Assembly (NCBI GenBank): GCA_017656145.1
Contig: JACDOI010000004.1
Location: forward strand, 17,850 to 81,849
DNA length: 64,000 nucleotides
Source of the DNA: Bacillota bacterium
Lineage (GTDB): Bacteria > Bacillota > Limnochordia > Limnochordales > ZCTH02-B6
Direction: 5' to 3'
Positions 10,987 to 63,177 of this stretch are shown here, piece by piece (the first letter of the stretch is position 1; each line of letters begins with the position of its first letter). The translations under genes were made by a program, and so were the position numbers. The notes beneath the pieces were generated by a model. It saw only the letters and a list, made by a program, of their open reading frames with translations. It made no database searches and was not told where the DNA came from.

Positions 10987-11011
10987 AAATTCCAGGCAAA
11001 TAAAAGGCGTC

Positions 11012-11170
11012 GTGATCGGTCGCTGAGTTCTCCGGAAACGGAGAAGCGGGGGACCCGTTTTTCGGGGCGAGTCCGTGTGGGGTGCCGGTTTGGCGCGGCG
11101 CACGGTAGGGCAACGACCTCTGGCCCGAGCCCGTCAGCTAACCCCGTAAGCGAAGCAGAGGGAGTCTTGG
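11012..11170 (+). promoter_or_regulatory. c-di-AMP riboswitch (ydaO/yuaA class)
   Basis: It contains CGCUGAGUUCUCCGGAAACGGAGAAGCGGGGGACCCG, then GGGGUGCC, then CCCGAGCCCGUCAGCUAACCCCGUAAGCG. These match my recollection of the conserved ydaO blocks (GAGCGGGGGACCCA ... CCGAACCCGACAGCUAACCUCGUAAGCG). An osmoprotectant transporter lies downstream, a known target class. Confidence 0.85.
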
Positions 11171-20026: not shown

Positions 20027-20587
20027 ATGGACTGTACGGTTCATGGTGTGCGGCTGGAACTCGTTCAGGGCGACATCGCCCGCCAACCGGACATGGAGGC
20101 CATTGTCAACGCGGCCAACGCCGAGCTCATGCCGGGCGGCGGTGTGGCGGGGGCGATCCACCGGGCGGCCGGGCCGGGACTGGCCGAGGAATGCCGGCCG
20201 CTTGGGCCCATCCGGCCCGGTGAAGCGGTCATCACCGGCGGCCACAATTTGCCCAACAAGTACGTCATCCACTGCTTGGGCCCCGTGTACGGCGTGGACG
20301 AACCGTCGGACGAGCTGTTGGCCCAATGCTACCGGCGGGCGCTGGCACTGGCCGAGGAGCGGGGCATTCGATCTGTCGGCTTTCCCTCCATCTCCACCGG
20401 CGCATTCGGCTTTCCCATGGACCGCGCGGCGACCGTCGCGTTTCGCACGATGTTGGAGCAGATCCCCCGGTTGCGCACGGTGAACCACATCCGTTTCGTG
20501 CTGTGGGGCGCGGACGCGCTGCGCACGCACGAGGCGGCGCTCTCCCGGTGCTTGGAGGAGGCCGGGCTTCCGAGCTCCGAGGGCTGA
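20027..20587 (+). CDS. Macro domain protein (O-acetyl-ADP-ribose deacetylase-like)
   Basis: Motifs VQGDIA, IVNAANAELMPGGGVAGAIHRAAGP and FPSISTGAFGFP. Confidence 0.85.
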   Translation: MDCTVHGVRLELVQGDIARQPDMEAIVNAANAELMPGGGVAGAIHRAAGPGLAEECRPLGPIRPGEAVITGGHNLPNKYVIHCLGPVYGVDEPSDELLAQCYRRALALAEERGIRSVGFPSISTGAFGFPMDRAATVAFRTMLEQIPRLRTVNHIRFVLWGADALRTHEAALSRCLEEAGLPSSEG

Positions 20588-20598
20588 CAAGCCGCATC

Positions 20599-20623
20599 GG
20601 TCCCGTCCGGGGAGGGGCCTTTT
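20599..20623 (+). terminator. Putative intrinsic terminator after the macro-domain gene
   Basis: The stem is ggtccc/ggggcc (one G-U pair), the loop is 9 nt, and tttt follows. Confidence 0.45.
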
Positions 20624-20713
20624 CATCGGCTGTCGTCGTCTGGCGCACGGTGCTCTGGCTCGATCCTGCAATCGGGTGGCTCGACGGACGCCCGTCGGCG
20701 AAGGGAGAGGGCG

Positions 20714-21889
20714 ATGATGTCGAAATCGTCCACGGCTCGCGCTCAGGCGCTCTACTTTACACATATTTACCTGGAGAACTGGAAGAACTTCCTGCACGTT
20801 GATCGAGCATTGCAGCGGCGCGTGTTCCTGGTCGGGCCCAATGCTTCAGGGAAGTCCAACTTGCTGGACGCCTTTCGCTTCCTGCGCGATCTGGTTACGG
20901 TCGGCGGCGGGTTTCAAGAAGCCGTTCGGCGCCGCGGGGGGCTGTCAGCCATTCGTTGCCTTGCGGCGCGCAAGCAACCTAACGTCGTGATCCGTGTCTC
21001 GATTGGAACGCAGGAGAAACCGGATAAGTGGGTCTATGAACTTCAGTTCACCCAGGACAACCAGCGCAGAACGCTTGTGAAGCGGGAGCGCGTCACCCGG
21101 GATGGAGAAGAACTCCTCTCCCGGCCAAATGAGGATGACCAATCGGATCCGGAGCGGTTGACCCAGACCTACCTGGAGCAAGTCAATGTGAATAAGGACT
21201 TTCGCCAGGTCGTGGATTTTTTCGCGTCCATTCGCTACCTCCATGTGGTTCCCCAGTTGGTGCGGGAACCCGAACGGTCGGTGGGCAAGGAGAATGACCC
21301 CTACGGCGGGGACTTCCTCGAACAGATCGCCCGTACCAATGACAAAACGCGCAAAGCCCGTTTCCAACGGATTCGAGAGGCATTGGCCGTCGCGGTTCCG
21401 CAGTTGAAGGAGCTTGAACTTTACAGAGATGTGCGGGGCACGCCTCACTTGCGGGGAAAGTATGAGCACTGGCGGCCGCAGGGAGCTTGGCAAGACGAGC
21501 GCCAGTTGTCCGACGGTACGCTCCGGCTCTTTGGCCTCCTATGGTCGGTGCTGGATGGGCACGGTCCGCTGTTGCTGGAGGAGCCCGAGCTGTCGTTGCA
21601 TCCCGAGGTCGTGCGGCACATTCCGCAGATGTTTGCGCGCATTCAGCGGAAGACCGGTCGGCAGCTGCTGATCAGTACACACTCGACCGGCCTGTTGCAA
21701 GACGAAGGCGTGGGATTGGATGAGGTGATGCTCCTCCAACCTGGTCGAGAGGGTACGTTTGTTCGAACGGCCACCGACATTCAAGACGTTGAGTCCCTAC
21801 TCGATGGAGGCGTGGGGCTTGATGAAATTGTGATGGCGGAGACCGCTCCCCGGAAAGTGGAGCAACTGGCGCTGTTTGGTGATCGATAA
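20714..21889 (+). CDS. ABC/SMC-like AAA ATPase (AAA_15/AAA_21-like), candidate defence ATPase
   Basis: Walker A GPNASGKSN near the N-terminus, signature-like QLSDGTLRLFGLL, Walker B LLLEEPELSLHP, and the H-loop region ISTHS. Confidence 0.8.
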   Translation: MMSKSSTARAQALYFTHIYLENWKNFLHVDRALQRRVFLVGPNASGKSNLLDAFRFLRDLVTVGGGFQEAVRRRGGLSAIRCLAARKQPNVVIRVSIGTQEKPDKWVYELQFTQDNQRRTLVKRERVTRDGEELLSRPNEDDQSDPERLTQTYLEQVNVNKDFRQVVDFFASIRYLHVVPQLVREPERSVGKENDPYGGDFLEQIARTNDKTRKARFQRIREALAVAVPQLKELELYRDVRGTPHLRGKYEHWRPQGAWQDERQLSDGTLRLFGLLWSVLDGHGPLLLEEPELSLHPEVVRHIPQMFARIQRKTGRQLLISTHSTGLLQDEGVGLDEVMLLQPGREGTFVRTATDIQDVESLLDGGVGLDEIVMAETAPRKVEQLALFGDR

Positions 21890-22503
21890 TGCGACGAGAG
21901 GTTATCGTAAACGGTGCCGTAGAAGGCCCGGTGGACGAAGCGGTACTGGTACGCCTGGTCACACACGCGGGTGGCCAGGCTCACGTCATCTACGGCAAGC
22001 GCGGGAAGAAAGCGCTGCTCCAGCGGCTGGGCGGATACAACCGGGCTGCCGAGCACTCGCCGTGGGTGGTGCTTGTCGATTTGGACAATGACTACGATTG
22101 CCCTGTCCCTTTCCGGAAAGCTGTGTTGCCGCAACCCGCTCGTTGGATGTGTTTTCGGATTGTCGTGCGTGCCGTGGAGGCTTGGTTGTTGGCAGACAGG
22201 GATCGCATCGCTCGTTTTCTTCGCGTCAGCCGGGACGTGATCCCACGGAATCCGGAGGTGCTGTCCGATCCCAAGGCGGCGCTTGTGCAGATCGCTGCGC
22301 GGTCCCGTTCCCGGCATATACGGGAGGACATGGTTCCCCGGCAGGGCAGTCGCCGACGCGTAGGCCCTGCGTATGCGTCCAGATTGAGAGAGTTCGTCAC
22401 GGATCCCGACACTGGCTGGAGGCCCGACGTGGCTGCAGCTTCCTCGGAAAGTTTGCGGAGAGCTCTAACCTGCTTGCAACGGCTCTTGGCCGGAGCTGCC
22501 TAG
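21889..22503 (+). CDS. Toprim-like small protein (DUF4276/DUF4435-like), partner of the ATPase
   Basis: The start is coupled to the upstream stop (TAATG). An N-terminal AVEGPVDEAVL (Glu) and VVLVDLDND (DxD) are followed by RAVEAWLLAD, the Toprim motif order. Confidence 0.6.
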   Translation: MRREVIVNGAVEGPVDEAVLVRLVTHAGGQAHVIYGKRGKKALLQRLGGYNRAAEHSPWVVLVDLDNDYDCPVPFRKAVLPQPARWMCFRIVVRAVEAWLLADRDRIARFLRVSRDVIPRNPEVLSDPKAALVQIAARSRSRHIREDMVPRQGSRRRVGPAYASRLREFVTDPDTGWRPDVAAASSESLRRALTCLQRLLAGAA

Positions 22504-22559
22504 TGGGGCCATCGCTTACCCCTAATTCGGCACGGTGTTGCCTGAACCTGGAACCGAAG

Positions 22560-23340
22560 CAGCGAATGGCCGGGACCGGAATCCGGTACGGGAGCCGCTT
22601 TTGGGCCGCTTTCGGCTACTCCTTCAGCTTCTTTGCGACCGACGCCAGTTTCGCATCCATGTCGCTGGGCTTATCCCGGCGGTCGTCGACTTTGATGACT
22701 GAGGAAATGCGTACGGCACCCAGCTCGGCCACGGCCTCGTGCATCTTGAGGATTACATCGAAGATGTCCTTCAGGTCGCCTTGGATGGTGGTGAACATCG
22801 GATCCATGCGGTACTTGATCCGGGGCTCTGCTCGCAACACCTTCTCAGCCGCCGCCACATAGCGGCTGACGCTCGTTTCTCCCGTCCCGATGGGGGTGAT
22901 GCTTACGGCGACGATGGCCATCGGCGATGCCTCCTTCACGGCTCTTTCCGGGTGACTTCGCTTCCGGCCGCCGAAAGGGGCGTCCGGGGCGCCGGCAAAT
23001 GCGACCGGGACGCCGGCCAGCGCAACCGAAAAACCGGATTGCCTGGCAGATCACTCGATGATGCTCATGCCCGGTGTAAACGACAGTAGCCGCGGAAACC
23101 GGGTAAGAAAGTTCCGCGGCTCGGTTACAGGGACCTTCCACACCTGGTGGTCCGCCGCCTGTGGAGTGAACAACGACCAGCGGGCAAAGCTTCTGGCCAT
23201 AGCGGCCCGGCGGGGATTGCGGGGGCATTCCGAACTCATCAAAGAGGCTGTGGAGCGATATTTGCAAGAGGAAGAGAGCCGCCAAGCCAGTGTGCAGAAG
23301 GTTCTCGAGCTGGAAGGAGCTCTCACCGCTGAGGACGAGC
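22560..23340. repeat. Direct repeat copy A (~0.78 kb; partner at 28933-29710)
   Basis: Aligned by eye. 22614-23009 is identical to 28983-29378 (396 bp); the remainder carries scattered substitutions. Confidence 0.9.
22616..22921 (-). CDS. MTH1187/YkoF-family (DUF77) thiamine-binding-like protein, copy A
   Basis: The MAIVAVSITPIGTGETSVSRYVA... pattern fits the family. GGAGG sits 8 nt upstream of ATG 22921. The tracked start at 22939 would include the RBS. Confidence 0.75.
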   Translation of the reverse strand: MAIVAVSITPIGTGETSVSRYVAAAEKVLRAEPRIKYRMDPMFTTIQGDLKDIFDVILKMHEAVAELGAVRISSVIKVDDRRDKPSDMDAKLASVAKKLKE

Positions 23341-23390
23341 AGAAGGCCGCGCAACGGATCCGGGAGACATGGGCGCGATGGAGGCCGTAG
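23166..23390 (+). CDS. Ribbon-helix-helix (CopG/VapB-like) antitoxin
   Basis: QRAKLLAIAARRGLRGHSELIKEAVERYLQEE is followed by LEGALTAEDEQKAAQRIRETW, a typical VapB-type tail. The stop overlaps the PIN remnant's start. The start codon is uncertain. Confidence 0.55.
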   Translation: MNNDQRAKLLAIAARRGLRGHSELIKEAVERYLQEEESRQASVQKVLELEGALTAEDEQKAAQRIRETWARWRP

Positions 23391-23523
23391 TGGACACCTC
23401 CGTCGTGATCGGGTTCTTGCGCGGCCGAATGCCCTGATGCACCGCAATCCGCTGGTGACGAGCAACGTGCGCGATTTTTCGCCCATAAAAGGGATAGACC
23501 CAAGCCCTGTCAAGATTGGTTGA
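23378..23523 (+). pseudogene. PIN-domain (VapC-like) toxin remnant with internal deletion
   Basis: An N-terminal MEAVVDTSVVIGFLRG runs to a stop at 23437. A C-terminal LVTSNVRDFSPIKGI follows in another frame, ending at 23523. The middle ~80 aa of a PIN domain are missing. Confidence 0.6.
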
Positions 23524-24045
23524 CTCGTGGTCATCCTCCCCCGTGTCGATGGACTTGATGCCGTTCCTGTCAAACAACTGGACCAGTACTTCCAGCTCCC
23601 GCAGCGCGTCGGCTACGAGAGCGAGGAAGGTTTTGTCGTCCGCGAAGACGGTGATGGACGACGGCGGTACACCGTCAGCCAGATGATCCCACACCGCTAC
23701 GGAGATACCGGGGTGGTGCCCCTGGTCTGTAGCCCGAACCTGAGGCAGTTGGGGGATAAGTCCCGAAAGCTGCGGCTGGACTGGCAGACGGACCACTTCT
23801 GTTGCTTCGGCTGCGGCCTGCGCCCCTTAGAAGGCCCGAAAAACGCCGTAATCCTGTGCGGAAGGAATTGCGCAAAAAAGTCTGACGATTAGTCGCAAGG
23901 CCATCAGAAATTGTGCAGTGTCAGACTTGACGGGTGCTCGTGGATATGGCGACAGAGTGGACTGTCGCAAATGAAGCAGTCAAAGGCGCTCGAAGCCGTA
24001 TACAAAACGGCTCGTCTTGTACGGCCCACAAAGCATGGGAAGGTA

Positions 24046-24074
24046 TTGACAAGATGGGACATGTAAAGTAGAAT
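24046..24074 (+). promoter_or_regulatory. Near-consensus sigma-A promoter (TTGACA-17 nt-TAGAAT)
   Basis: Read directly. AGGAGG (24091) and ATG 24103 follow, opening only a 20-codon ORF. Confidence 0.6.
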
Positions 24075-24139
24075 TAGGACACATAAAGAAAGGAGGGGTT
24101 AGATGATGGAAAAAAGCCGCCTCCTACGTGAGAGTTTCC

Positions 24140-24335
24140 ACTGGCTATGGGCCGGTTTTTCCTGAACATGATGGCCGCCTTTGCGGAGCTTGGGCGCAAC
24201 CTCGTCGCTCAGAGGACGGCTACTGCCCTGGCTCAGAAAGCGCACCGAGAAGTTTACAGCCCTACCCCCCTACGGATTTGACCGGGTAGCGGAGAGAGTG
24301 GCGGAAGACGCCCATCAGCAGGAGACGCAAAACAG
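24140..24335 (+). pseudogene. Serine recombinase remnant (frameshifted, N-terminal catalytic domain missing)
   Basis: FFLNMMAAFAELGRNLVAQRTATALAQKA is the conserved resolvase helix region. PPYGFDRV follows in a second frame. Confidence 0.5.
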
Positions 24336-24354
24336 CTGTCAGGAGGTGGCCTCA

Positions 24355-24549
24355 ATGGCCGAAAGGCTTTTGACTTTGGAGGAGGTGGCAGAACGACTGG
24401 TTGTTGCTCCAAAAACCATTCGGGACTGGTTAAGGGAAGGGAAGTTAAGGGGATTGAAGGTTGGCAAGCTATGGCGAGTTCGGGAGCAAGATCTTGAGGC
24501 CTTCTTAGCTGAAGCGGAAAGGGCTACAACACAGGGTAAGGACAATTGA
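24355..24549 (+). CDS. Excisionase-family helix-turn-helix DNA-binding protein
   Basis: AGGAGG sits 8 nt before ATG 24355. LLTLEEVAERLVVAPKTIRDWLREGKLRGLKVGKLWRVREQDLEAFL is an HTH_17-type pattern. Confidence 0.75.
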   Translation: MAERLLTLEEVAERLVVAPKTIRDWLREGKLRGLKVGKLWRVREQDLEAFLAEAERATTQGKDN

Positions 24550-24616
24550 TATTGAGAAAAGATAAACTGCATAAGCCAGAGAAGGAACAACCTCTCTGCG
24601 GTCTGGTTCGGAGGAG

Positions 24617-25726
24617 TTGTTTTCAGGGGGAAAGAAGGCCTTGAAGACAGCAAATTTGAGTTCACTGGCGGTGGGCTACCCTTCCCATGTTATTGGTCAA
24701 TCGCTCATCCTACAGGCTGATTGCTTTGAATGGCTGAGCCGTGTGCCTGAGAACAGTATCCACGCGATTATTACAGATCCGCCCTACGGGGTAAAAGAAT
24801 ACGAATTCGACCAACTCCAGAAGCGGGCCAATGGAAATGGGGGGACATGGCGGATTCCACCCTCCTTCGACGGCCATATGCGCTCCCCTCTGCCCAGGTT
24901 CACTGCGTTAAATCAGAAGGAGCGCGAATCCTTGCGCCACTTCTTTGTAGAGTGGGCCCGCCTTGCGGTGAAAGCGCTACGTCCAGGTGGTCATGTCTTT
25001 ATTGCTAGCAACGCCTTCATTTCGCACCTGACCTTTTCCGCACTGGTCGAGGGAGGATTGGAGTTTAGGGGGGAAATCATCCGGCTTGTACGCACCCTGC
25101 GGGGCGGAGATCGACCTAAAAATGCGGAGAAGGAATTCCCCCAAGTTTCTTCAATGCCCCGCGGGTGCTATGAACCTTGGGGGCTCTTTCGGAAGCCCTT
25201 GCCCAAAGGTATGACTGTAGCCGATTGTCTGCGGGAATTTCAAACGGGAGGACTACGCCGCTTGCCCAACGGCAACCCCTTCTGTGACGTAATTTTCAGT
25301 GAGCGCACGCCTGGGCAGGAACGAAAAATCGCCAACCACCCCAGCTTAAAACCTCAGTCCCTGCTGCGTCAGCTGGTCTACGTGGCGCTACCTTTAGGCG
25401 AGGGCATAATCGTTGATCCCTTCATGGGCTCGGGTTCGACGGTAGCCGCAGCCGAAGCACAAGGGCTGTCTTGCATCGGTATCGAGCGGTATCGCGAGTA
25501 CTTCGAAATGAGCACGCGGGCCATTCCGGCCTTAGCTGCGTTGGATGTGAGTCCCTGGGCACAGCACCCATGGGGTCGCCAGGTCCGTCTCTTTGACGAA
25601 ATGCTACGGAGCCCGATAGACCCAATTGGCGAGCATCTTGCGCAGGCCCGATCGAGTGACGCTGGCCGTAATGGTGCGGCGGCTGGTAGGCGAGCGCCCA
25701 GAAAAACTCCAGTCGGCCTTTTCTAG
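24617..25726 (+). CDS. Type II DNA methyltransferase (N6-adenine/N4-cytosine, beta-class order)
   Basis: Motif IV IITDPPYG is near the N-terminus and motif I DPFMGSGSTVAAAE near the C-terminus. The start codon is uncertain. GC looks lower than the flanks. Confidence 0.85.
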   Translation: MFSGGKKALKTANLSSLAVGYPSHVIGQSLILQADCFEWLSRVPENSIHAIITDPPYGVKEYEFDQLQKRANGNGGTWRIPPSFDGHMRSPLPRFTALNQKERESLRHFFVEWARLAVKALRPGGHVFIASNAFISHLTFSALVEGGLEFRGEIIRLVRTLRGGDRPKNAEKEFPQVSSMPRGCYEPWGLFRKPLPKGMTVADCLREFQTGGLRRLPNGNPFCDVIFSERTPGQERKIANHPSLKPQSLLRQLVYVALPLGEGIIVDPFMGSGSTVAAAEAQGLSCIGIERYREYFEMSTRAIPALAALDVSPWAQHPWGRQVRLFDEMLRSPIDPIGEHLAQARSSDAGRNGAAAGRRAPRKTPVGLF

Positions 25727-26248
25727 GCGGGCGCAGTAGACAGCTCGAAAACTGAAGGGTTGTGGAGAGACCCCCTGCAGGGCGTCGCTAGGACGGTTGC
25801 TGGTAAACACGAATACCATCAGCCATACGTCTTCAGGGTTGTGACCTTGCCAGCCCTGTTCATAGCGAGACGCCTTGATTTCGATCCCCTCGTCGGTATG
25901 TTGAACGGCATTATTGGGAAAGCGACCTGCGGGAATTAGGTCGGGGTGCCCGTTGTGGTACCGGTTCGCAACCAGGGAAGGACAAAAAACGGGAATATTG
26001 GCTTTCATGAACTCCCCGACTATACTGCTGAAGTTAGCAGGCATTAGCAAGGACTCTATGCGGGGCAGACCCTTGCTATGTAGTTGCTGGTTGAGAAAGC
26101 CCAGAAAATCGACGAAACTTTCCATCGCCTGCCGCACGTGGTGAACTTCCAAGCCGTACGGAAGTTTAGCGGCAGGATTAAATCCTGCAGGCTCGACAGG
26201 TGTTGGGGTACAGGCGCGTTTCTCTAGCTCGTCTTTCATGCATTTCAT
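25604..26248 (-). CDS. Putative type II restriction endonuclease (PD-(D/E)xK)
   Basis: GHPDLIPAG ... DEGIEIKASR gives a PD...ExK arrangement. The gene is convergent with the MTase. The start is taken at M92/M95 (26248/26239), where GC content changes. The tracked 305-aa start at 26521 was rejected. Confidence 0.6.
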   Translation of the reverse strand: MKCMKDELEKRACTPTPVEPAGFNPAAKLPYGLEVHHVRQAMESFVDFLGFLNQQLHSKGLPRIESLLMPANFSSIVGEFMKANIPVFCPSLVANRYHNGHPDLIPAGRFPNNAVQHTDEGIEIKASRYEQGWQGHNPEDVWLMVFVFTSNRPSDALQGVSPQPFSFRAVYCARLEKADWSFSGRSPTSRRTITASVTRSGLRKMLANWVYRAP

Positions 26249-26555
26249 CTTACCACATTTTGATACCGATGATGAACGTTCCCATGGTTCCAGGATGACG
26301 TCAAGCCACTGTCGCACGGAGGAGGATAGATTCCGGCGCGGGAGGCGGGATTCGACGACGACGGATGCCTGTACTACCTCTACGAGCAGGGGAAGCTCCA
26401 CTTCGTGCGCATCGGCAACAAGAAGAGCCAGCGCCACGACGTCGCCTGGTTGCGGCGCCACTACGCGAAGGGCCGTCGTCGGAGCGCTGGATAAACGTCC
26501 CTCTTGCCGCGCGAGGTCCACGCTTTCAGCCGCGTCCGCCCGGAGGGATCCGGAG

Positions 26556-26746
26556 ATGACAGGGGAGAATGGTCACGACCGTGGGTTGTCACCTGTCGGC
26601 CTAAACGCTGAACAGTCGGCTTTTGTGATGCACCATGGACCAGACTCTCCTCCATGCCCCGGTTGGCACGGGCAAGACCCGGGCCCTGGGCGAGCGCGCT
26701 GCCCAGGCGATTGTGGCCGGCATCAAGCCTTCACGGCTCCTATGCT
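26556..26746 (+). pseudogene. UvrD/Rep-type helicase N-terminal remnant (frameshift, truncated)
   Basis: After an RBS-like GGAGGGATCCGGAG, ATG 26556 opens ...GLNAEQSAFV.... In another frame LLHAPVGTGKTRALGERAAQAIVAGIKPSRLL (Walker A) follows, then a stop. Confidence 0.5.
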
Positions 26747-27042
26747 AGCGACCGCCCGGCACGTGGAGATTCCGTATCGTCCCAGCTGTGCCCGCCGGGC
26801 CTGTGAGCACGACGGCCTTTCGCCACGCGACACAACACTTTCGTCGCGAAGGTTTGCCAGCCAAGATTCGTCAACGTTGGGAAACGCTAGGGGCCCTATG
26901 CGGGAGGCCACGGGTAAGTACGCCGGGGTGGGTGATCACACCCCGGGTGGTCTGAGACGGTGACGCCTCACACTGACAGCAAATAACAATCAGTTTGGCA
27001 GTAAAAATAAAGATTTGCTGCCATTTCTAGTTAGACGTCGCG

Positions 27043-28926
27043 TTGAGAAATAGAAATGGATGCTTCCGCCTCGCGCAAGGGCCGGCCACTTTGGGGGGAG
27101 ACGGGGTGTTGGTGCACGTCGCCGGGGGCGCGGGTTGCTTATTGCTGCTGTGGACGATTCGCACCGTCCGTGTGCAGCGCGGTGCCATGAGGATGGCCAG
27201 AAGGCTGGACGACGCCCTTCGCTGGGGTGACGGTGCCTCACCCCTTTGCGCATCCATTCCCAAACCGGCTGCGGTAGACACCTTGCTCCATGACTTGCAA
27301 AACCGTGTTTCCGAGGCCCTCCAAAGTGAGGTTCAGCGACATGGTGCGGCAACGGCCGCGCGATCTCCCCAGGCCGCACCCCTGCCTTCGTGGGTGCCCG
27401 TATTGGATATCGGGCTGGCCGGCGTCGACCAAGTGCAGTCCCTGATGAAGATCGATCCACGCGTCATCGAGGGGATGGATTTCTGGCTGTCCGAGGATTT
27501 GGGAGACTTCTCCACCCTTCAGCGCGTCGTGTCCGAGGCGGCCGCCGGTGAGAATTACGGCCGTTGGCTCGATACGCTCAAAGGTTACGCCGCCGAGCAG
27601 ATCGCGGCCGATGTTTTAGTTTCCAGCGGCGCCCACGTGGAGCTTGCCCCGAACCCCAATCAAGCTGGGTGGGATTTGCGGGTCGACGGCGAGTACTACA
27701 ACGTGAAGGTGGGCACGACCGCCTCCCACATCGAACAGCACTTTCAAGAGTATCCGGACATCGGTGTGGTCACGAGCCCGGAACTGGCGGCCCAGTTCCC
27801 GGAATACGCGGATCAGATCATCGCGCTCCCCGAACTGTCCAACGAGAACCTGGTGGAAGCCGTCGAAGAGACCGTGAGTGGCGTGACCGGTGTAGATTGG
27901 GATTTCCCGTTCCCGGTGGTCACCGCCGTCTACTCCGGCATCCGGGAGCTGGATCTCCTGCTTTCGGGGGACACCGAGTTGGGGACCAGCCTGCGCAATC
28001 TCGGGCTTGACGTGGCCGGGACGGGCGGCGGCAGTTGGCTGGGCGGAAAGGCGGGCTCGGCACTGGGCTTGGCCATCGGGGGCCCGCCGGGAGTGGTGAT
28101 CGGCGGTGTCGTGGGTGGCATTGCCGGCGCGCTGTTTGGACGCAGTTTCACCAACCAGATCAAACTGGACGCCCTCAACCGGGCAAGGGAGCAGTTTGAG
28201 CGCAAGCGCGACGAGATACAGGCCCAGCTGACCGTGAAACACCAGAATTTGCAGGAGGCCGTGCTGACTCAGGTCAATGGCGTGCAGCGGGAGCTGCGGA
28301 CGTCATTGCGGCAGATGGAGGAGATGCACCGGGCCAACGCCTGTCGCATCAAGGCCGATTACGAAGCAGCCGTCGCCCGGTTTGTCGCCACTGTTCCTGG
28401 ATGTCTGGAAGCGGCCGCCGACCGGATTGCCAACACGACGGCGAGTGCCCTCACGGAGATGCCCGAGTCCCCTTGGCTCGTTCGCCTTGTGTGGCCATCC
28501 CAGCGGGATATCGAAAAGGAAGCGTTCGCCCTTTGGAGCCGGCGCGAGCAGCGGAGGCTGCGCGGCGCCGCGCGCAAGATCCGCCGTTTCACGCGGGTCT
28601 ACGGGACGCAAACAGCTTATGCCAAGACGCTTGCGGTCTTGGAAGACCGGCTGCTGCAAGTGACTGAGCTGGCGCCGGCCGTTGAGGAACTGAGCAAGGC
28701 TCACGTTCAAGCATTGACAGCTCTGGCTGTGGAGCGGGCAAAGCTGGAGCACGAATGTAAAGGCGCGGTTGCAGCAGCCGTTCGCCGGCTTGCCGCCGTC
28801 ATCACCGAGGAAACGACAAAGCTTCATGCCTGGTTGGAGGAACAGGCCGAGGCGTTGCGCTCGTTGGGAGACCAGGTGCGCGCGGAGATGAGGCGGCTGG
28901 GCCTGAAGCCGACTCCCGGACAGTGA
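27043..28926 (+). CDS. Uncharacterised protein: Mrr-like PD-(D/E)xK-type motif + glycine-zipper hydrophobic segment + long coiled-coil C-terminus
   Basis: A long ORF with a paralog at 61669-63177. Motifs are KGYAAEQIAADVL...GWDLRVDGEYYNVKVG and GTGGGSWLGGKAGSALGLAIGGPPGVVIGGVVGGIAGALFG. The start is uncertain (27043, GTG 27106 after GGGGGGAG, or ATG 27187). Confidence 0.7.
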   Translation: MRNRNGCFRLAQGPATLGGDGVLVHVAGGAGCLLLLWTIRTVRVQRGAMRMARRLDDALRWGDGASPLCASIPKPAAVDTLLHDLQNRVSEALQSEVQRHGAATAARSPQAAPLPSWVPVLDIGLAGVDQVQSLMKIDPRVIEGMDFWLSEDLGDFSTLQRVVSEAAAGENYGRWLDTLKGYAAEQIAADVLVSSGAHVELAPNPNQAGWDLRVDGEYYNVKVGTTASHIEQHFQEYPDIGVVTSPELAAQFPEYADQIIALPELSNENLVEAVEETVSGVTGVDWDFPFPVVTAVYSGIRELDLLLSGDTELGTSLRNLGLDVAGTGGGSWLGGKAGSALGLAIGGPPGVVIGGVVGGIAGALFGRSFTNQIKLDALNRAREQFERKRDEIQAQLTVKHQNLQEAVLTQVNGVQRELRTSLRQMEEMHRANACRIKADYEAAVARFVATVPGCLEAAADRIANTTASALTEMPESPWLVRLVWPSQRDIEKEAFALWSRREQRRLRGAARKIRRFTRVYGTQTAYAKTLAVLEDRLLQVTELAPAVEELSKAHVQALTALAVERAKLEHECKGAVAAAVRRLAAVITEETTKLHAWLEEQAEALRSLGDQVRAEMRRLGLKPTPGQ

Positions 28927-28932
28927 TCTCAC

Positions 28933-29710
28933 CAGCGGGCCGGGACCGGAATCCGGACGGGAGCCGCTTTTGGGCCGCTTTGGGCTACTCCTTCAGCTTC
29001 TTTGCGACCGACGCCAGTTTCGCATCCATGTCGCTGGGCTTATCCCGGCGGTCGTCGACTTTGATGACTGAGGAAATGCGTACGGCACCCAGCTCGGCCA
29101 CGGCCTCGTGCATCTTGAGGATTACATCGAAGATGTCCTTCAGGTCGCCTTGGATGGTGGTGAACATCGGATCCATGCGGTACTTGATCCGGGGCTCTGC
29201 TCGCAACACCTTCTCAGCCGCCGCCACATAGCGGCTGACGCTCGTTTCTCCCGTCCCGATGGGGGTGATGCTTACGGCGACGATGGCCATCGGCGATGCC
29301 TCCTTCACGGCTCTTTCCGGGTGACTTCGCTTCCGGCCGCCGAAAGGGGCGTCCGGGGCGCCGGCAAATGCGACCGGGCCGCCGGCAAGCGCAACCGAAA
29401 AACCGGATTGCCTGGCAGCTCACTCGGCGATGCTCATGCCCGGTGTAAACTATAGTAGCCGCGGAAACCGGGTAAGAAAGTTCCGCGGCCGGGTTACAGG
29501 GACCTTCCACACCTAGTGGTCCGCCGCCTGCGGAGTGAACAACGACAAGCGGGTAAAGCTTATGGCCGTAGCGGCCCGGCGGGGATTGCGGGGGGATTCC
29601 GAACTCATCAACGAGGCTGTATACCGATACTTGCGAAAGGAAGAGGGCCGCCAAGCCAGTGTGCAGAAGGTTCTCGAGCTGGACGGAGCTCTTATGGTTG
29701 AGGAGCAGCG
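28933..29710. repeat. Direct repeat copy B (partner at 22560-23340)
   Basis: See copy A. The offset is +6369 across the identical tract. Confidence 0.9.
28985..29290 (-). CDS. MTH1187/YkoF-family (DUF77) protein, copy B (identical to copy A)
   Basis: The translation, RBS and leader are identical to copy A. Confidence 0.75.
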   Translation of the reverse strand: MAIVAVSITPIGTGETSVSRYVAAAEKVLRAEPRIKYRMDPMFTTIQGDLKDIFDVILKMHEAVAELGAVRISSVIKVDDRRDKPSDMDAKLASVAKKLKE

Positions 29711-29852
29711 TGCGCCATTTTCGCCCAAAAAAGTGTGGAACTGCTCTTCACCGAGCGCGCTGTTCCCTGATACCAGACGTGAAACAGACCGGACGTCCTT
29801 TATCGGGGTGCCGAAAGGGCAAGGTTCCAGGCACTGGGACATGACCGTGTAA
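29535..29852 (+). pseudogene. RHH antitoxin-like gene fused to PIN C-terminal debris (copy B of the vapBC-like module)
   Basis: The N-terminus KRVKLMAVAARRGLRGDSELINEAVYRYL is homologous to copy A. After ALMVEEQ the sequence jumps to cgtgcgccattttcgcccaaaaaag, matching the copy A PIN C-terminal DNA cgtgcgcgatttttcgcccataaaag. Confidence 0.5.
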
Positions 29853-29957
29853 ACGCGCCGCCGGGTTTCTCCCTCCCGCGCCGGAGTCTCGCACAAATAG
29901 CTGACTTATATACACCAATGATAATAATCTTATTTATCGTTTTAATGGTAGATAGCA

Positions 29958-29986
29958 TTGACGTGTCGACCGGTACATGTTATGCT
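29958..29986 (+). promoter_or_regulatory. Putative promoter of the ROK/rhamnosidase operon (TTGACG-17 nt-TATGCT, with TGT extension)
   Basis: Read directly in an AT-rich intergenic region. Confidence 0.5.
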
Positions 29987-29990
29987 TGAG

Positions 29991-30015
29991 TTAGTTCACA
30001 AAGAATATTAACTAA
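29991..30015 (+). promoter_or_regulatory. 25-bp inverted repeat TTAGTT-N13-AACTAA, XylR/ROK-type operator candidate
   Basis: The half-sites and overall length resemble my recollection of the Bacillus xylO operator (TTAGTTT...AAACTAA). It lies between the putative -10 element and the ROK gene start. Confidence 0.5.
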
Positions 30016-30027
30016 GGTCGATGTTCG

Positions 30028-31248
30028 ATGGGCGCTGAACGTCACAAGGGTGATCAAAGTACCCTGCGCGCCTCAAACAGGCGGCGGGTTCTCAACTACG
30101 TGCGTCGGCTTGGCCCTGTGAGCCGTAGCCAGCTCGCTAAGCTCACCGGCCTCAGTGCTGCCGCCATCTCGCAAATCACGGCCGCGCTGATCGAAGAGGG
30201 GCTTCTGGTGGAGCGGAGTTTTGGCGAGGCCGGAGCCGCTGGCGGCCGTCGCCCTATCCTGCTTGCCACCAATTACGCGGCGTACTATTCCGTGGGCATC
30301 AAGCTTCGCGAGGATCGTCTGGAGGCGGTCCTCACAGATCTTTCTACCCGTGTGCTCGCACACATGACCGCTTCTCTTGAGGATCGCTCACCGGAGAACG
30401 TAGCCGCACAGGTGGCATCGGCCTGCAGGCGACTGTTCGAAGACAGGAACGTGCGGCAGGAAAATGTGGTGGGTGTAGGGATTGGTCTCTCAGGCGTAAT
30501 CGACGCAGATCGGGGAATTGCTGTCCACGTGCCCCTCTTGGGTTGGCGCAACGTGCCCATCTCACAGTACGTCGCCGAACAGACCGGACTACCTGCTTTC
30601 GTCGACAACGACGTCAACGCCTTTGCCGCCGCGGAACGGCTCTTCGGCCATGGCAAGAATGCTCGCAACTTCCTGGTCGTGGCCGTTGGGCGAGGTGTGG
30701 GCGGAGCCCTGGTTGTCAACGGGGAGATTTACCGCGGCCGAAACGGCGGTGCGGGTGAGTTCGGCCACAACATAGTCGTTCCGAATGGGCGTCGCTGCAG
30801 CTGCGGGCGACTGGGATGTTTAGAAGCCTATACCTCGGAACCAGCCCTCGTTTCTCAATTCGTCGAACGCCATCCCGAACACGCCGGAATTACCATTGAC
30901 GAACTTGTGCACTTGGCCAATACCGGCCACCGCACGGCCCGGTCGATCCTTTCCGACGCGGGACGACTTCTTGGCACTCACCTCTCCTATCTGGTCAACG
31001 CTTTCAATCCGGAACTCATCATCTTCGGCGGAGAGGCTGCCCGTCTTGGAACGGTCTACTTCGATCCCCTGAGAGAAACAATGCGTGCCCTAGTCTTCGA
31101 TTACGCAGGGCATGACCTACCTTTCATCGTGATCCCGTGGTACGACGACGATTTTACGCCCTGGGCCCGGGGTGCGGCAAGCCTTGCCGCACAGTATGCC
31201 TTTGACACGGGAAGTCTACATCATTTGAAAGGAGAGTTAAAGAGATGA
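30028..31248 (+). CDS. ROK-family transcriptional repressor (XylR/NagC-like)
   Basis: An N-terminal winged HTH (NRRRVLNYVRRLGPVSRSQLAKLTGLSAAAISQITAALIEEGLL) is followed by a ROK sugar-kinase-like body with the Zn motif CSCGRLGCLEAY. Confidence 0.85.
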   Translation: MGAERHKGDQSTLRASNRRRVLNYVRRLGPVSRSQLAKLTGLSAAAISQITAALIEEGLLVERSFGEAGAAGGRRPILLATNYAAYYSVGIKLREDRLEAVLTDLSTRVLAHMTASLEDRSPENVAAQVASACRRLFEDRNVRQENVVGVGIGLSGVIDADRGIAVHVPLLGWRNVPISQYVAEQTGLPAFVDNDVNAFAAAERLFGHGKNARNFLVVAVGRGVGGALVVNGEIYRGRNGGAGEFGHNIVVPNGRRCSCGRLGCLEAYTSEPALVSQFVERHPEHAGITIDELVHLANTGHRTARSILSDAGRLLGTHLSYLVNAFNPELIIFGGEAARLGTVYFDPLRETMRALVFDYAGHDLPFIVIPWYDDDFTPWARGAASLAAQYAFDTGSLHHLKGELKR

Positions 31249-32525
31249 AAGGACGCCTTTGGTGGGTAGTCGTAGCGAGCGTGGGCATCGCGTTGTTTGC
31301 CGGCGGCGTATCGGTCGCCCAGGGTTCAAACGTCATCCATTTCCTGAGCGTGCAGCAGGAGACCGAGGGCTTTACCAGGATCATTGGTGAACTGGCCAGG
31401 GAGTACGAGACTCAGCACCCAAATGTGCAGTATAAGTACGAGTTCGTCGCCCAAACGGACCTACTTCGGCGGATCCAGCTGCTGGCCGCCAACAGGAATC
31501 TCCCCACGCTTTTCAACTACGAATCGGGTCAACCGCTCCGGCAACTGATCGACAGCGGCCTGGTCCTTGACATTGAAGCCACCTTTAAGGAGCTGGGGCT
31601 TTACGACAGACTCAACCCGGCCGCCGTCAAGTTGCTAAAGGGCTTGGTCGGTGACGCAGGGCTTTACGCGCTTCCTCTCGAGTTGAACGTCGAGGGGTTC
31701 TGGTACAACAAGGAACTCTTCGCGCGGTACGGGCTGGGTGTGCCGCAGACGTGGGATGATCTGTTGCAGGCAGCCGAAACATTCCACAGAAACGGTATCC
31801 AACCGTTCGCTGTGTCGGGCATTCAGAAATGGCCCATCACCCGGCTCATTAACGGCTACGTCATGCGCCGGTATGGTCATGATGTGATGGCCCGGGTTCA
31901 GCGGGCCGAGCTCAAGGTCACCGATGAAGGTTTCATAGAGGCAGCGCGAGTGGTGCAGGAGATGGGGCTTAAGGGGTATTTCGGCAGGGGCGTCAATACT
32001 CTCGACTACGCCCCGGCCCAGGACCTTTTCCTGCAAGGTAGAGCAGCGATGTACTACATGGGCAGCTGGGCGTTGCGAGACTTCAACAATCCACAAGTCA
32101 ACTTGATCGGGCCGGAGAACATCGGATTCTTCAACATACCCCTGGTGGAGGACGGTGTCGGCACCCTTGCCGACTACTCGATCAATGCGGGCCTGACGAC
32201 CTCCATATCCTCGAACGCGTACGATGCTGAGCTGGGGGAGTGGTTGAAGTACGTATTTGCCCGTTATGGAGACCGGGCGATGAGCGTACTCGGCATGATC
32301 ACCGGCTTCAGAGTTGAAGCCGTGCCGCACGATGTCCCCGCACTCACCCGTCTGGTGTTGGAGCACCTCGACCAGGCGCAAAACGGTGCTCCGTGGTTTG
32401 AGGCCTACTTCGGGCCGAGGGCGACTTCAGTCGCCTGGGACAACGCGCAGCTTCTGGTCACGGGCGACATCACCCCTGAGCAGTATATGGCTGAGCTCCA
32501 GCGGGCTCTTGATGGTGAACGGTAA
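31245..32525 (+). CDS. Carbohydrate ABC transporter substrate-binding protein (family 1)
   Basis: The ATGA start overlaps the ROK stop. It has a signal peptide and a 426-aa SBP-like sequence. Confidence 0.8.
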   Translation: MKGRLWWVVVASVGIALFAGGVSVAQGSNVIHFLSVQQETEGFTRIIGELAREYETQHPNVQYKYEFVAQTDLLRRIQLLAANRNLPTLFNYESGQPLRQLIDSGLVLDIEATFKELGLYDRLNPAAVKLLKGLVGDAGLYALPLELNVEGFWYNKELFARYGLGVPQTWDDLLQAAETFHRNGIQPFAVSGIQKWPITRLINGYVMRRYGHDVMARVQRAELKVTDEGFIEAARVVQEMGLKGYFGRGVNTLDYAPAQDLFLQGRAAMYYMGSWALRDFNNPQVNLIGPENIGFFNIPLVEDGVGTLADYSINAGLTTSISSNAYDAELGEWLKYVFARYGDRAMSVLGMITGFRVEAVPHDVPALTRLVLEHLDQAQNGAPWFEAYFGPRATSVAWDNAQLLVTGDITPEQYMAELQRALDGER

Positions 32526-32583
32526 CCTGCTCGCCGGGTGGTGTCGATCGGCGCCACCCGGCCCTTCGTGCGGTCCTCTGGGA

Positions 32584-33477
32584 GTGAGTGGCTTGGAAAA
32601 AGTGTTGCGCGACCGCAAGGCCATCCTGATCTTCGTGGGACCTGCCTTGCTGCTTTATGTTCTGGTTCTTCTGGTGCCTATCGGATGGTCGGTCGTCTAC
32701 ACGTTCTACGACGGGTCGCCGATCACAGGGTTCAGGTATGTGGGGATGGCCAACTTTGCGAGGCTGTTCCGGGACCAGACCTTCTTGAGGAGTTTCTGGT
32801 TCACTACCCGCTACGCCCTTCTGGTCTCCGGGGGCCAGATTGTGATGGGCCTGCTCTTGGCACTCTTGTATCACTTCTATCTAAAAAGGGCGTCGTCAAT
32901 CGTTCGGACGCTGGTCTTCTTCCCGGTCGTTTTGCCCACCGTGGCCGTGGCCCAGATGTTCCAGAAGTTCTTTGAAATTACACCTCAATACGGCCTGGTC
33001 AACGCGATCCTTGCCGTCCTGCGCCTGGAGCAGCTCGTTCAGCCCTGGCTCGGCCAGGGGAGCACGGCCTTTTGGGTCCTGGTCATCATGGATATCTGGA
33101 AAGCGATGGGTTTCTACGCGGTGCTACTTTATGCCGGTCTCATCGAGATCCCGGAAGAGTTGATCGAGGCGGCCCGGCTGGACGGGGCGTCGGGTTGGAG
33201 CCTAGTACGGTTCATGATCGTACCGCTTTTGACCCCCGTCCTTGTGTCCTCACTAATTTTCAGCCTCAACGGAACCCTGAAAGTCTTCGACTCGGTAGTG
33301 GCCCTTACTGGCGGCGGTCCAGGTACGACCACCACTCCGTTGACGTTGTACATGTACAAGGCTGCCTTTACGTACAACGAGTACGGATACGGCAGCGCCG
33401 TGGCCGTCCTCCTCACACTCTACAGCCTACTCTTCACGCTCCTGATCTACCGCCGGGCCCGGCAGAACGTCGCGTGA
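32584..33477 (+). CDS. Carbohydrate ABC transporter permease (MalF/UgpA-like)
   Basis: EAA loop IEAARLDGASGWSLVRFMIVPLL. The start is GTG 32584, TTG 32593 or GTG 32602. The tracked start at 32314 lies inside the SBP gene. Confidence 0.8.
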   Translation: MSGLEKVLRDRKAILIFVGPALLLYVLVLLVPIGWSVVYTFYDGSPITGFRYVGMANFARLFRDQTFLRSFWFTTRYALLVSGGQIVMGLLLALLYHFYLKRASSIVRTLVFFPVVLPTVAVAQMFQKFFEITPQYGLVNAILAVLRLEQLVQPWLGQGSTAFWVLVIMDIWKAMGFYAVLLYAGLIEIPEELIEAARLDGASGWSLVRFMIVPLLTPVLVSSLIFSLNGTLKVFDSVVALTGGGPGTTTTPLTLYMYKAAFTYNEYGYGSAVAVLLTLYSLLFTLLIYRRARQNVA

Positions 33478-33498
33478 GAGACGGAGGTGGGAAGGACC

Positions 33499-34338
33499 AT
33501 GAACTACGTATCCCGATACGCCCGCCGTTGGCTTCTGAACCTCCTTGTTGCGATTCTCGTGGCGGTTTCGCTGTACCCGGTCGTTTGGCTGCTTCTCTCG
33601 TCGATCAAATCCCCGCACGAGTTCACCACGCGACCCATCTACGCTCTTCCCGAAGGCTTCTACTGGGAGAATTACGTCCGGGCCTGGACGACAGGCAGGA
33701 TGGGGGTGTACTTCAAGAACAGCGTACTGGTCACCTTCCCCTCGATCCTGCTCGTCCTTATTCTCGGCGTCGCGGCGGCCTTCGGCATCGAGATCCTGAG
33801 GTGGAAGTTCAGGAATTTGGTGCTTCTGTTCTTCCTCGGAGGAATCATGATTCCGGTTCAGATCGTGCTCCTGCCGCTCTTTACGATTTACTACAGGATT
33901 GGACTCCTTGATAGTTACTGGGGGTTGATCCTAACCTACGTAGCTTTTGCCCTGCCGCTCACGGTATTCTTGCTGGCGGCGTACTTGAAGACGCTTCCGA
34001 GAGAGGTGCTTGAGTCGGCAATTTTGGACGGGGCTAGCATCTACCAGGTCTTCTTCCGAGTGGCCCTGCCAATGGTCAAGAGCTCACTTGTGACCGTGAC
34101 CCTGGTCCAGTTCTTTTTCATCTGGAACGACCTGCTTCTATCCATGACCTTCATTAGCGATACTGAACTTCGGACCGTTCAGACTGGACTTCTCAGCTTC
34201 GTCAGCCAATACGGCCAGATCGATTGGGGGCCGACATTTGCGTCTACTTCGTTGGCCGTGGTGCCCACGCTGGTGATTTATCTGCTCCTTAACAAGATGG
34301 TCATGAAAGGGCTGACGGCGGGGGCGGTGAAGGGTTAA
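33499..34338 (+). CDS. Carbohydrate ABC transporter permease (MalG/UgpE-like)
   Basis: GGAGGTGG sits ~9 nt before ATG 33499. EAA loop LESAILDGASIYQVFFRVALPMV. Confidence 0.8.
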   Translation: MNYVSRYARRWLLNLLVAILVAVSLYPVVWLLLSSIKSPHEFTTRPIYALPEGFYWENYVRAWTTGRMGVYFKNSVLVTFPSILLVLILGVAAAFGIEILRWKFRNLVLLFFLGGIMIPVQIVLLPLFTIYYRIGLLDSYWGLILTYVAFALPLTVFLLAAYLKTLPREVLESAILDGASIYQVFFRVALPMVKSSLVTVTLVQFFFIWNDLLLSMTFISDTELRTVQTGLLSFVSQYGQIDWGPTFASTSLAVVPTLVIYLLLNKMVMKGLTAGAVKG

Positions 34339-34341
34339 CGC

Positions 34342-61372: not shown

Positions 61373-61668
61373 TGTGCCTTGGTACCTCCATTCTTGAAGT
61401 TGAAACTAGAAAAGCAAGTTATCAATTGACCAAGGCTCCAGGTTTTTCCTTCTTTCCGAGGTTAACTTTTCCTATACTCGACCTCGATAGATCCGTTTGC
61501 TCAGTCTTCAGTGTCCGGGACCGCCGGTGAGGATAACACGCGTCGAAGAATTCCGCCGGCGAGCCCGCAGTGCAGGGGTTGGGGTGTCGCACCCGTTGGC
61601 GAGTGCAGCAGGAATTGGTCGATGTTAACGGAATGTACAGTAAACAAAACGCGGGAGGGAGGTTAACC

Positions 61669-63177
61669 GTGGCCTTCCATCGCCAGTCGGGCTTAGACAC
61701 CCGGTCGTCGAAAATGCCCTGGTGGGTCCCGGGTGCGGATGCGGGCCTCGTCTATCTCGGCAAGCTCCAAGCGTTATCGGCTATCGACCCGCGAGTCATC
61801 CAGGCGATGGATTTTTGGTTAAAGGATTCCGTAGGCGACCTCGGTGAGGCCCGCCGGATTGTTCTCGAAGCGACCGATTCCGAGAACTACGAGCGATGGC
61901 TGGAGGCGTTAAAGGGTTACATCGGCGAGCAGGTGGCGGCGGACCTCCTGGAAACGCAGGGATTCTCCGTGGAGTGGGCACCGGCGCCGAACGAGCAAGG
62001 ATGGGACCTCTCCATCAACGGTCAACCCGTTAATGTGAAGGTTGGAGCGACGGCCGAACATGTGGCCCGGCATCTGGCCGAGCATCCCGACATTCCCGTC
62101 GTCACCAGTCCTGAGTTGGCCGCCCAGTTTCCCGACGAGGCCGACAGGATCATCGCCTTGCCGGAACTGGACAATGAGGCGCTTGAGGCGATCCGAGACG
62201 AGTCGCTCGACAACCTCGTGGAAGCCGGAGAATGGGAGGCGGTTTTCCCTGTCGTCACCGCCGTTGCTGCCGGTGGGCGTGAACTGGTGCTCTGGCTCTC
62301 GGGAGACACGGATCTCCTGTCGGCGGTTCGGAACGCTGGGTTGGATGTTGCCGGCGTCGGCGTCGGCATGTTCATCACGGGGCATCTAGCTGCCTCGGCC
62401 TTGACGGCTCTCGGCGTCGTTAACCCCCTGGCGGCAACCGTCGCTTCTTTTGGAGGCGGCTTGCTTGGCAAATCGCTGGCTCGCTCGATAAAGACCCGCC
62501 CATTGGAGGAGGCGGTGGTAGAGTTCAGGGAAGCGCAGGAAGCTGCCCGCCGCGAGTGGATGGAACGCCGCGTTCTGTTTCGTCAGACAGTGCTCCGCGG
62601 CATAGCCGCCCTGGAGCGGGAGCTTAGAGAGCGGTTGCGCCGGATCGAGCGCAAGCACCGCCGGCGGCTGAGTACGGAGAAATCTCGATTCGAGAGAGCG
62701 GTTCAGGAATTTTTGCACGATGTGCCAGACCGGTTGGAATCGGGCGCTGAATGTGCGTTGTCGGGGCCTCCGGAGCTCGGTCCGTGGCTCGAGCGGGAGC
62801 GACAGTGGGTAAGAGAAGTCGCGGACGGGATTCGGCGCTTAGTCCAGTCCCTTCCGCCAGCGGACGCGTTTGCTGAGGTTCAAGACGTCCTCTTGAACGC
62901 GCGGGTGCCGATACGCCAACTCATGGAGTCTGTGGACACCCTGGTACAGGAGCATGCCCGGATGCTGACCGCGGCCGGAGTGGAACGGACCTTGGCGGAA
63001 CGGGAGGCCAGGCGGGAAATCGCCCGAACGGTTTCCGCGATTCAGCAGTTGATTCTCCGCGAGTCTCGAAAGCTGCACGAGTGGATCGATCAGCGACGTG
63101 AGAAGTTGAAGCACCTGGCGGAAAAGGTGGCTCAGGCGGCTCGCAGGCTCGGTTTCCGTTGGCCGCTCCCTGAATAA
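61669..63177 (+). CDS. Paralog of the 27043-28926 protein (Mrr-like motif + hydrophobic Gly/Ala segment + coiled coil)
   Basis: GGGAGGGAGG ends 6 nt before GTG 61669. Motifs are KGYIGEQVAADLL...GWDLSINGQPVNVKVG and VVTSPELAAQFP...IIALPEL. The hydrophobic segment is GVGVGMFITGHLAASALTALGVVNPLAATVASFGGGLLG. Confidence 0.7.
   Translation: MAFHRQSGLDTRSSKMPWWVPGADAGLVYLGKLQALSAIDPRVIQAMDFWLKDSVGDLGEARRIVLEATDSENYERWLEALKGYIGEQVAADLLETQGFSVEWAPAPNEQGWDLSINGQPVNVKVGATAEHVARHLAEHPDIPVVTSPELAAQFPDEADRIIALPELDNEALEAIRDESLDNLVEAGEWEAVFPVVTAVAAGGRELVLWLSGDTDLLSAVRNAGLDVAGVGVGMFITGHLAASALTALGVVNPLAATVASFGGGLLGKSLARSIKTRPLEEAVVEFREAQEAARREWMERRVLFRQTVLRGIAALERELRERLRRIERKHRRRLSTEKSRFERAVQEFLHDVPDRLESGAECALSGPPELGPWLERERQWVREVADGIRRLVQSLPPADAFAEVQDVLLNARVPIRQLMESVDTLVQEHARMLTAAGVERTLAEREARREIARTVSAIQQLILRESRKLHEWIDQRREKLKHLAEKVAQAARRLGFRWPLPE

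Follow-up and report, generated by a model that had tools for sequence, protein, structure and literature searches.

A 64-kb window of contig JACDOI010000004.1, from an uncultured member of the Bacillota, contains two direct repeats of about 0.78 kb that bracket 5.6 kb of defence-type and mobile-element genes. The two copies share a 396-bp internal core, covering a gene of the MTH1187 family, in which not a single base differs, and they are diverged on both sides of that core. We propose that the two copies are old paralogues and that a recent gene conversion between them probably made the core identical. The source of the window is a metagenome-assembled genome (MAG; listed at NCBI as 'Firmicutes bacterium', locus tags H0Z37_), and all positions below follow the numbering of the 64-kb window.

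Two direct repeats with an identical core

The boundaries of the repeats were set by local alignment of the two regions, and the core was defined by exact comparison of the two copies. The resulting features were as follows.

22560-23335, repeat copy A, 776 bp, by local alignment to copy B
28933-29704, repeat copy B, 772 bp, in direct orientation relative to copy A and 6369 bp downstream
22614-23009, identical core of copy A, 396 bp, with 0/396 mismatches and bracketed by mismatches at 22613 and 23010
28983-29378, identical core of copy B, 396 bp, an exact match to the core of copy A

A first-pass annotation, made from the letters of this DNA, had described two copies in the same orientation with a 396-bp identical core, and the exact alignment reproduced that description: 22614-23009 equals 28983-29378, and the first mismatch on the right is at 23010, as had been reported. 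To the right of the core, positions 23010-23335 contain 29 substitutions in 326 nt (8.9%) and no insertions or deletions (indels). The annotation had placed the diverged tract on this side only; it was correct for the right side, but the 54 nt to the left of the core are diverged as well, with a single substitution at 22613 and two indels, of 1 nt at 22587 and of 3 nt at 22565-22567. The identical tract therefore lies inside the homology, as a patch between two diverged stretches. If a 3-nt gap is allowed, the homology between copies A and B may extend to approximately 23346 and 29708.

The abrupt drop in identity that had been claimed is a real discontinuity. At a divergence of 8.9%, the probability of finding 396 clean bases is 9.5e-17, and in 200,000 random permutations of the 30 mismatches a gap of at least 396 was never obtained. 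The pair is the only repeat of at least 35 nt within the 64-kb window. No inverted repeats were found at the ends of copies A and B, and the repeats encode the MTH1187-family protein and a fragment of vapB, not a transposase. A composite transposon was likewise not recognized, because the repeats are not insertion sequence (IS) elements and have neither a transposase nor terminal inverted repeats. A 5-nt sequence, CAGCG, opens copy B (28933-28937) and recurs just past its end (29706-29710).

The MTH1187-family gene in the core

Each copy of the core contains one complete gene.

22616-22921, minus strand, MTH1187-family gene of copy A, 306 nt, 101 amino acids (aa), intact; PF01910 Thiamine_BP / TIGR00106; NCBI MBO8140899.1
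28985-29290, minus strand, MTH1187-family gene of copy B, identical in sequence to the gene of copy A; NCBI MBO8140905.1

The 101-aa protein is colinear with its homologues and gave a full-length match to the family, with E 2.5e-31 and 107.9 bits for Pfam PF01910 (cut-off 24.9) and E 3e-28 and 98.2 bits for NCBIfam TIGR00106 (cut-off 54.7). In copy A its ribosome-binding site, AAGGAGG, is located at 22930-22936. The core extends from 88 nt upstream of the gene to 2 nt past its stop codon, in good agreement with the earlier description of a core made up of the gene, its ribosome-binding site and a leader of about 90 nt. No terminator was detected 3' of the stop codon, the place where one is to be expected; folding there was no better than that of shuffled sequence (z = -0.5) and the consensus scan listed no site. 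No sigma70-like promoter was found inside the core.

The first-pass annotation had offered two explanations for the sharp boundary, recent gene conversion or selection on the tract, and the silent positions of the core distinguish between them. Purifying selection acting alone on MTH1187 would account for the presence of an intact gene in the clean tract and a decaying pseudogene in the diverged one, but synonymous changes and changes in the leader are not removed by such selection. At the divergence of the flanks, about 6 differences would be expected at the approximately 72 synonymous sites of the gene and about 6-8 in its 88-nt leader; there were none in either. A search for structured RNAs that might explain conservation of the leader found no Rfam family in 22300-30100, either at gathering thresholds or at E<=1. 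The complete lack of synonymous and leader differences effectively refutes selection as the sole cause, and we assign it next to no probability. Recent gene conversion, the other explanation offered, fits best: the tract is clean over 396 nt, divergence is present on both sides, and the silent sites are homogenised.

Elsewhere, the best identity of the MTH1187 protein was 70-72% in GTDB representative genomes and JGI metagenomes, and no near-identical strain was found, there being nothing above 72% identity in those two collections. None of the genes that neighbour MTH1187 in the window was shared around its homologues (0/160 loci). The closest homologues (67-72% identity) are located between a gene of 365-369 aa and putative glycosyltransferase-like open reading frames (ORFs), as read by eye from the translations with no family search. 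Among the top-ranked literature matches there was no joint mention of MTH1187 and 'phage defense'. We know of no defence role for MTH1187-family proteins.

Remnants of a vapBC module in the diverged part

The region to the right of the core had been annotated as an RHH gene with scattered substitutions. The substitutions are there, being the 29 counted above, but the gene is not intact; it is a remnant of a vapB-type antitoxin gene that shows neutral divergence and whose PIN toxin partner has been deleted.

23166-23390, plus strand, vapB-like RHH antitoxin remnant of copy A, 74 aa, without the N-terminal strand of its 80-82-aa homologues
29535-29704, plus strand, vapB-like fragment of copy B; homology ends at about codon 57-60 and the ORF continues through unrelated sequence to 29852
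23387-23496, plus strand, vapC (PIN toxin) remnant, with residues 4-19 joined to 103-123 in different frames and about 83 codons deleted

Pfam matches of the RHH ORF to RHH_1/VapB were weak and below the cut-off. Homologues of 80-82 aa with about 50% identity occur in seven other contexts, and because they always precede an overlapping PIN gene, we identify the ORF as a vapB-type antitoxin. In none of the seven contexts do the homologues adjoin MTH1187. By tblastn, both vapB copies begin at homologue position 7, and copy B aligns over positions 7-60 only. With the PIN proteins of sequences L167-L172 as queries, tblastn detected the PIN scraps after copy A, overlapping vapB in the canonical way; no PIN remnant was found by tblastn after copy B. 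The region resembles VapBC (RHH antitoxin - PIN toxin) type II modules in its homologous RHH ORF and in the PIN ends that follow copy A, and differs from them in that about 83 internal codons of the toxin are missing, the antitoxin is without its N-terminal strand in both copies, and copy B is cut at about codon 57-60. Judged from these deletions and truncations, the vapBC module of the window is dead.

The differences between the two vapB copies have the distribution expected of such DNA. Over their 56 codons in common, the copies show 14.5 nonsynonymous versus 3.5 synonymous differences (dN/dS 1.39), and a ratio of about 1.4 is what neutral drift would produce. ORFs in alternative frames begin at 23147 and 29516, near the 5' ends of the vapB copies; a frameshift shared by the two copies at this end was considered, and the six residues involved were too few for a decision.

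Origin of the repeats and of the identical patch

Taken with the state of the genes in the repeats, the alignment suggests the following history. The ancestral unit would have been a segment made up of 56 nt 3' of the MTH1187 stop codon, the MTH1187 gene, the divergent intergenic region and approximately the first two thirds of vapB, and its duplication would be old. Copy B would be a truncated derivative, because more of the vapBC operon survives in copy A, and both copies would have come from one lineage-specific segment, because the junction of MTH1187 with truncated vapB was found in no other genome. The left flank, the intergenic region and the vapB remnant would then have drifted apart by about 7-9% as non-functional DNA. 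More recently, the 396 bp covering MTH1187, the only intact gene of the repeat, and its 5' region would have been homogenised by non-reciprocal homologous recombination. Such a patch was perhaps favoured, since the sole functional gene of the repeat would thereby stay intact in both copies. The cargo between the copies would represent accumulated mobile DNA: the vapC scrap, a dead recombinase, a cassette of HTH, methylase and endonuclease genes, and the gene for a nuclease-like glycine-zipper protein that we call p627. Both the conversion mechanism and this order of events are what we infer from a single sequence of the region.

Gene conversion and concerted evolution are classically exemplified in bacteria by tufA/tufB in Salmonella and by the rRNA operons. 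The repeats of the window resemble such dispersed bacterial paralogues in that there are two copies per replicon, a sharp identical tract lies within diverged homology, and both silent and non-coding sites are homogenised. They differ in that the evidence comes from a single MAG sequence and in that the converted gene is small and not a highly expressed housekeeping gene. A recent example of gene conversion is given in an account of Mycobacterium tuberculosis (PMC12046097).

Several points weigh against recent conversion between old repeats. The searched collections included no outgroup or sister strain that could show which way and when the conversion went, or whether relatives have the cargo. 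In a MAG, a small number of genuine differences within the core might have been lost in assembly, and the k=31 contigs described in the next section do not reach across the 396-bp core to link its flanks. The patch could also date from the duplication event itself, as the product of heteroduplex repair at a crossover.

Integration of a circle in the manner of Campbell would be an event in which the patch has this kind of origin. A circle carrying the cargo and a diverged 0.78-kb homologue would have integrated by a single crossover, and the patch would be mismatch-repaired heteroduplex. Single-crossover integration of a circle does yield direct repeats around the insert, the diverged-identical-diverged pattern fits a crossover with a conversion tract, and the cargo includes DNA that was recently mobile. 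The donor, however, would have to have carried the same junction of MTH1187 with truncated vapB, which was found in no other genome, and searches for a circular or plasmid relative gave none. Mechanistically this integration is a special case of recombination between the repeats as proposed above, and sequence alone cannot separate the two. We consider it quite unlikely.

A history in two steps without conversion is highly improbable. In this history the old duplication would have been followed by a separate, recent and precise copying of MTH1187 alone, and it is true that the clean tract (22614-23009) nearly matches the gene (22616-22921) plus its 5' region. Yet a colinear, indel-free replacement in register is operationally a homologous-recombination patch, and neither border of the tract, 22613/22614 or 23009/23010, has the ends of a mobile element, inverted repeats or a target duplication. 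Gene conversion between the paralogous repeats is retained as the best explanation.

Support for two copies in an independent assembly

The repeat was compared with an independent assembly, the Logan contigs (k=31) of run SRR13776092; exact-protein look-ups matched only the Logan contigs of this run, and a literature search on its accession gave no papers. These contigs match the window at 100% identity over 20567-22410, 23278-26328, 26305-29012 and 29701-34729. The break at 23278 coincides with the start of a 37-nt run common to copies A and B, and the break at 29012 is the last base specific to copy B (28982) plus 30, as a k=31 graph predicts. Because these two breaks fall where the graph of a two-copy sequence must branch, we conclude that both sets of flanks are real. 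In addition, the contig covering 26305-29012 (L084) contains the left junction of copy B with the end of p627 at 100% identity. The first-pass annotation had made the duplication depend on read support for two copies. That support exists in the form of the k=31 branch points, which place both copies in the reads; the k-mers are too short to link one flank to the other through the 396-bp core.

Other breaks do not fall at such positions. The break at 29701 is 4-8 nt away from the right-hand limit of the homology and is unexplained by the repeat, and those at 22410 and 26305-26328 also lie outside any repeat. The 29701 break may be a coverage gap or an alternative junction.

These observations bear on whether the deposited arrangement could be an assembly artefact or one of two configurations. 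The chromosome might have a single copy (HEC-01, core, vapB of copy B, ROK-family gene), with the core, the vapB of copy A, the cargo and p627 in a 6.4-kb circle or tandem array; or the identity of the core might have come from the popping of a bubble in the assembly graph. The source is a MAG, and a 396-bp exact repeat exceeds short reads and any k-mer, leaving the path through it to read-pair logic. The k-mer content is the same in both configurations, and the Logan contigs cannot discriminate between them; the unexplained break at 29701 also fits an alternative junction. On the other hand, the deposited contig of 104,163 bp passes through both copies, and the presence of other breaks away from any repeat (22410, 26305-26328) makes a coverage gap a possible cause of the one at 29701. 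A stable circle is unlikely for a 6.4-kb unit in which no replication gene was found and which has only a dead recombinase, though transient forms may occur. No relatives of the unit were found in phage records or IMG/VR, and in the phage, plasmid and viral collections the sole match was one of 65% to a plasmid methyltransferase. Even under such a configuration, there would still be two homologous copies, diverged but sharing an identical patch. We regard an artefact or alternative configuration as unlikely.

The cargo between the repeats

The 5.6 kb between copies A and B contain the following features in addition to the vapC remnant.

24189-24327, plus strand, serine-recombinase pseudogene remnant; PF00239 positions 109-144, E 6e-6; frameshift and deletions
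24355-24549, plus strand, excisionase-type HTH protein, 64 aa; HTH_17 / TIGR01764; NCBI MBO8140902.1
24671-25726, plus strand, type II N6/N4 DNA methyltransferase; PF01555 E 2.6e-19; PADLOC MTase_II E 7e-103; 351 aa in Logan contig L086
25604-26251, minus strand, candidate restriction endonuclease, whose gene converges on that of the methyltransferase and overlaps it; longest ORF to 26521; PADLOC REase_II E 1.5e-4, weak
27403-28926, plus strand, p627; NCBI MBO8140904.1, 507 aa; ORF open from 27043; PF13488 match

The segment from 24327 to 26259, which contains the HTH, methyltransferase and candidate endonuclease genes, is 93-94.5% identical to contigs of three other metagenome samples (L174, L175 and L176, from JGI 3300019235, JGI 3300025631 and Logan SRR28062681). 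A serine-recombinase gene directly precedes the HTH gene in two of the three, with only its C-terminal 97-99 or so residues on the contigs, and the arrangement of methyltransferase and endonuclease is conserved in L174 and L175. The recombinase remnant of the window is 75% identical over 28 aa and 45% identical over 20 aa to the C-terminal recombinase part in L175/L176, which continues through the stretch deleted in the window. Because the cassette is nearly identical in three other samples and a recombinase precedes the HTH gene in two of them, these matches indicate that the putative restriction-modification (R-M) cassette is a recently mobile unit whose mobility gene has decayed here. What had been called an HTH segment belongs to this decayed mobile cassette of serine recombinase and R-M genes.

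The candidate endonuclease had no match in Pfam, NCBIfam or PDB, and it appears to be without a protein record in the deposited annotation. A minus-strand ORF at 23323-23796 was considered as the missing N-terminus of the resolvase and was dropped, having no Pfam support even at E<=1. A sigma70-like promoter, TTGACA-17-TAGAAT (11/12 matches), is located at 24046-24074 on the plus strand, shortly before the recombinase remnant and the genes for the HTH protein and the methyltransferase.

The region has some features of att-flanked genomic islands, in which direct repeats bracket acquired cargo with a recombinase gene and an excisionase-type HTH gene. It differs from them in that the repeats consist of 0.78 kb of diverged gene sequence instead of short identical att cores, and in that the recombinase is a serine-type pseudogene inside the cargo and not at its end. 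No att-like structure was found, and there is no tRNA gene in the window. An intact integrase or recombinase was also not found; only Resolvase positions 109-144 and a frameshifted piece remain.

The protein p627, which ends just before copy B, had been noted as a novel gene. It proved to be a member of a large, unnamed and uncharacterised family with 938 representatives at E<=1e-3, and the defence role proposed for it is only suggested by the comparisons that follow. The protein consists of an N-terminal alpha/beta domain, a glycine zipper and a helical C-terminus of about 260 aa. Its N-terminal domain was confidently modelled (AF2) and has invariant E, D and K columns. Foldseek matches to this domain were weak, but nearly all were to PD-(D/E)xK proteins (CdiA-CT, DdmD, I-Ssp6803I, Hjc and Ecl18kI), and we weakly predict from the model that the domain is PD-(D/E)xK-like. 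A fold search with full-length p627 returned coiled-coil noise only. The window contains a second member of the family, 40% identical to p627, at 61570-63177. Together these features suggest that the family may be a defence effector. The description of this family, with its PD-(D/E)xK-like domain, glycine zipper and coiled coil, may be the most reusable by-product of the analysis.

Possible loss of the cargo

A perfect direct repeat of 396 bp is a good substrate for RecA. Because the cargo has no working recombinase, we infer that it could be lost or circularised only if the repeats recombined in a RecA-type reaction. On the general biology of RecA, it is plausible that the cargo may be excised or vary in phase by this route. 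Its loss would take away a putative R-M system, and such losses are often counter-selected. The junctions that a deletion or circle would form are invisible in k-mer assemblies, because no new k-mers arise.

A bolder version would make the MTH1187 modules portable homology arms, between which a cassette of the R-M system and p627 is lost, regained and swapped by RecA, with conversion keeping the arms proficient and the break at 29701 marking a coexisting junction. We think this very unlikely.

Setting of the repeats in a defence island

The genes closest to the repeats on the two sides are the following.

20714-21889, plus strand, HEC-01A (AAA_21 ATPase); PADLOC E 2.4e-160; Pfam AAA_21
21889-22503, plus strand, HEC-01B; PADLOC E 8.9e-63; ends 56 nt before copy A
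30028-31248, plus strand, ROK-family regulator, first gene of the right flank, in a sugar ABC operon; Pfam on Logan contig L081, which is 100% identical to 29701-34729

The genes upstream of the two copies end at 22503 and 28926, exactly as had been annotated. The NCBI accessions run consecutively from HEC-01A (MBO8140898) to the MTH1187 gene of copy A (MBO8140899), and HEC-01B seems, like the candidate endonuclease, to be without a protein record.

The repeats and their cargo form part of an island between housekeeping genes, with gpsA and a macro gene on the left and the ROK gene and sugar ABC operon on the right. The island resembles defence islands with cassette turnover in its clustering of HEC-01A/B with a putative type II R-M cassette, the debris of a toxin-antitoxin module and what is left of a recombinase; the duplicated MTH1187 module is the sole element that sets it apart from them. 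The GC content of the window varies strongly, being about 0.65-0.70 in 1-20 kb, 0.52-0.62 in 21-39 kb and 0.48-0.55 in 40-53 kb, and the repeats are located at the first of these transitions. The only Rfam match in the window is a c-di-AMP riboswitch (RF00379) at 11011-11167 on the plus strand, with 85.4 bits against a gathering threshold of 38.

Significance

The patch is a clean, textbook-style case of gene conversion inside diverged repeats. It adds one more example of a process that is well known, in a defence island that is ordinary, and it matters little beyond this genome. For the analysis of MAGs, exact repeats of this kind call for confirmation at the level of reads. For the biology of such islands, the region shows how they gather dead parts of mobile elements. 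If the cargo does in fact flip between presence and absence, it would provide a modest case in which recombination switches an R-M system on and off in an uncultured, thermophile-like member of the Bacillota.

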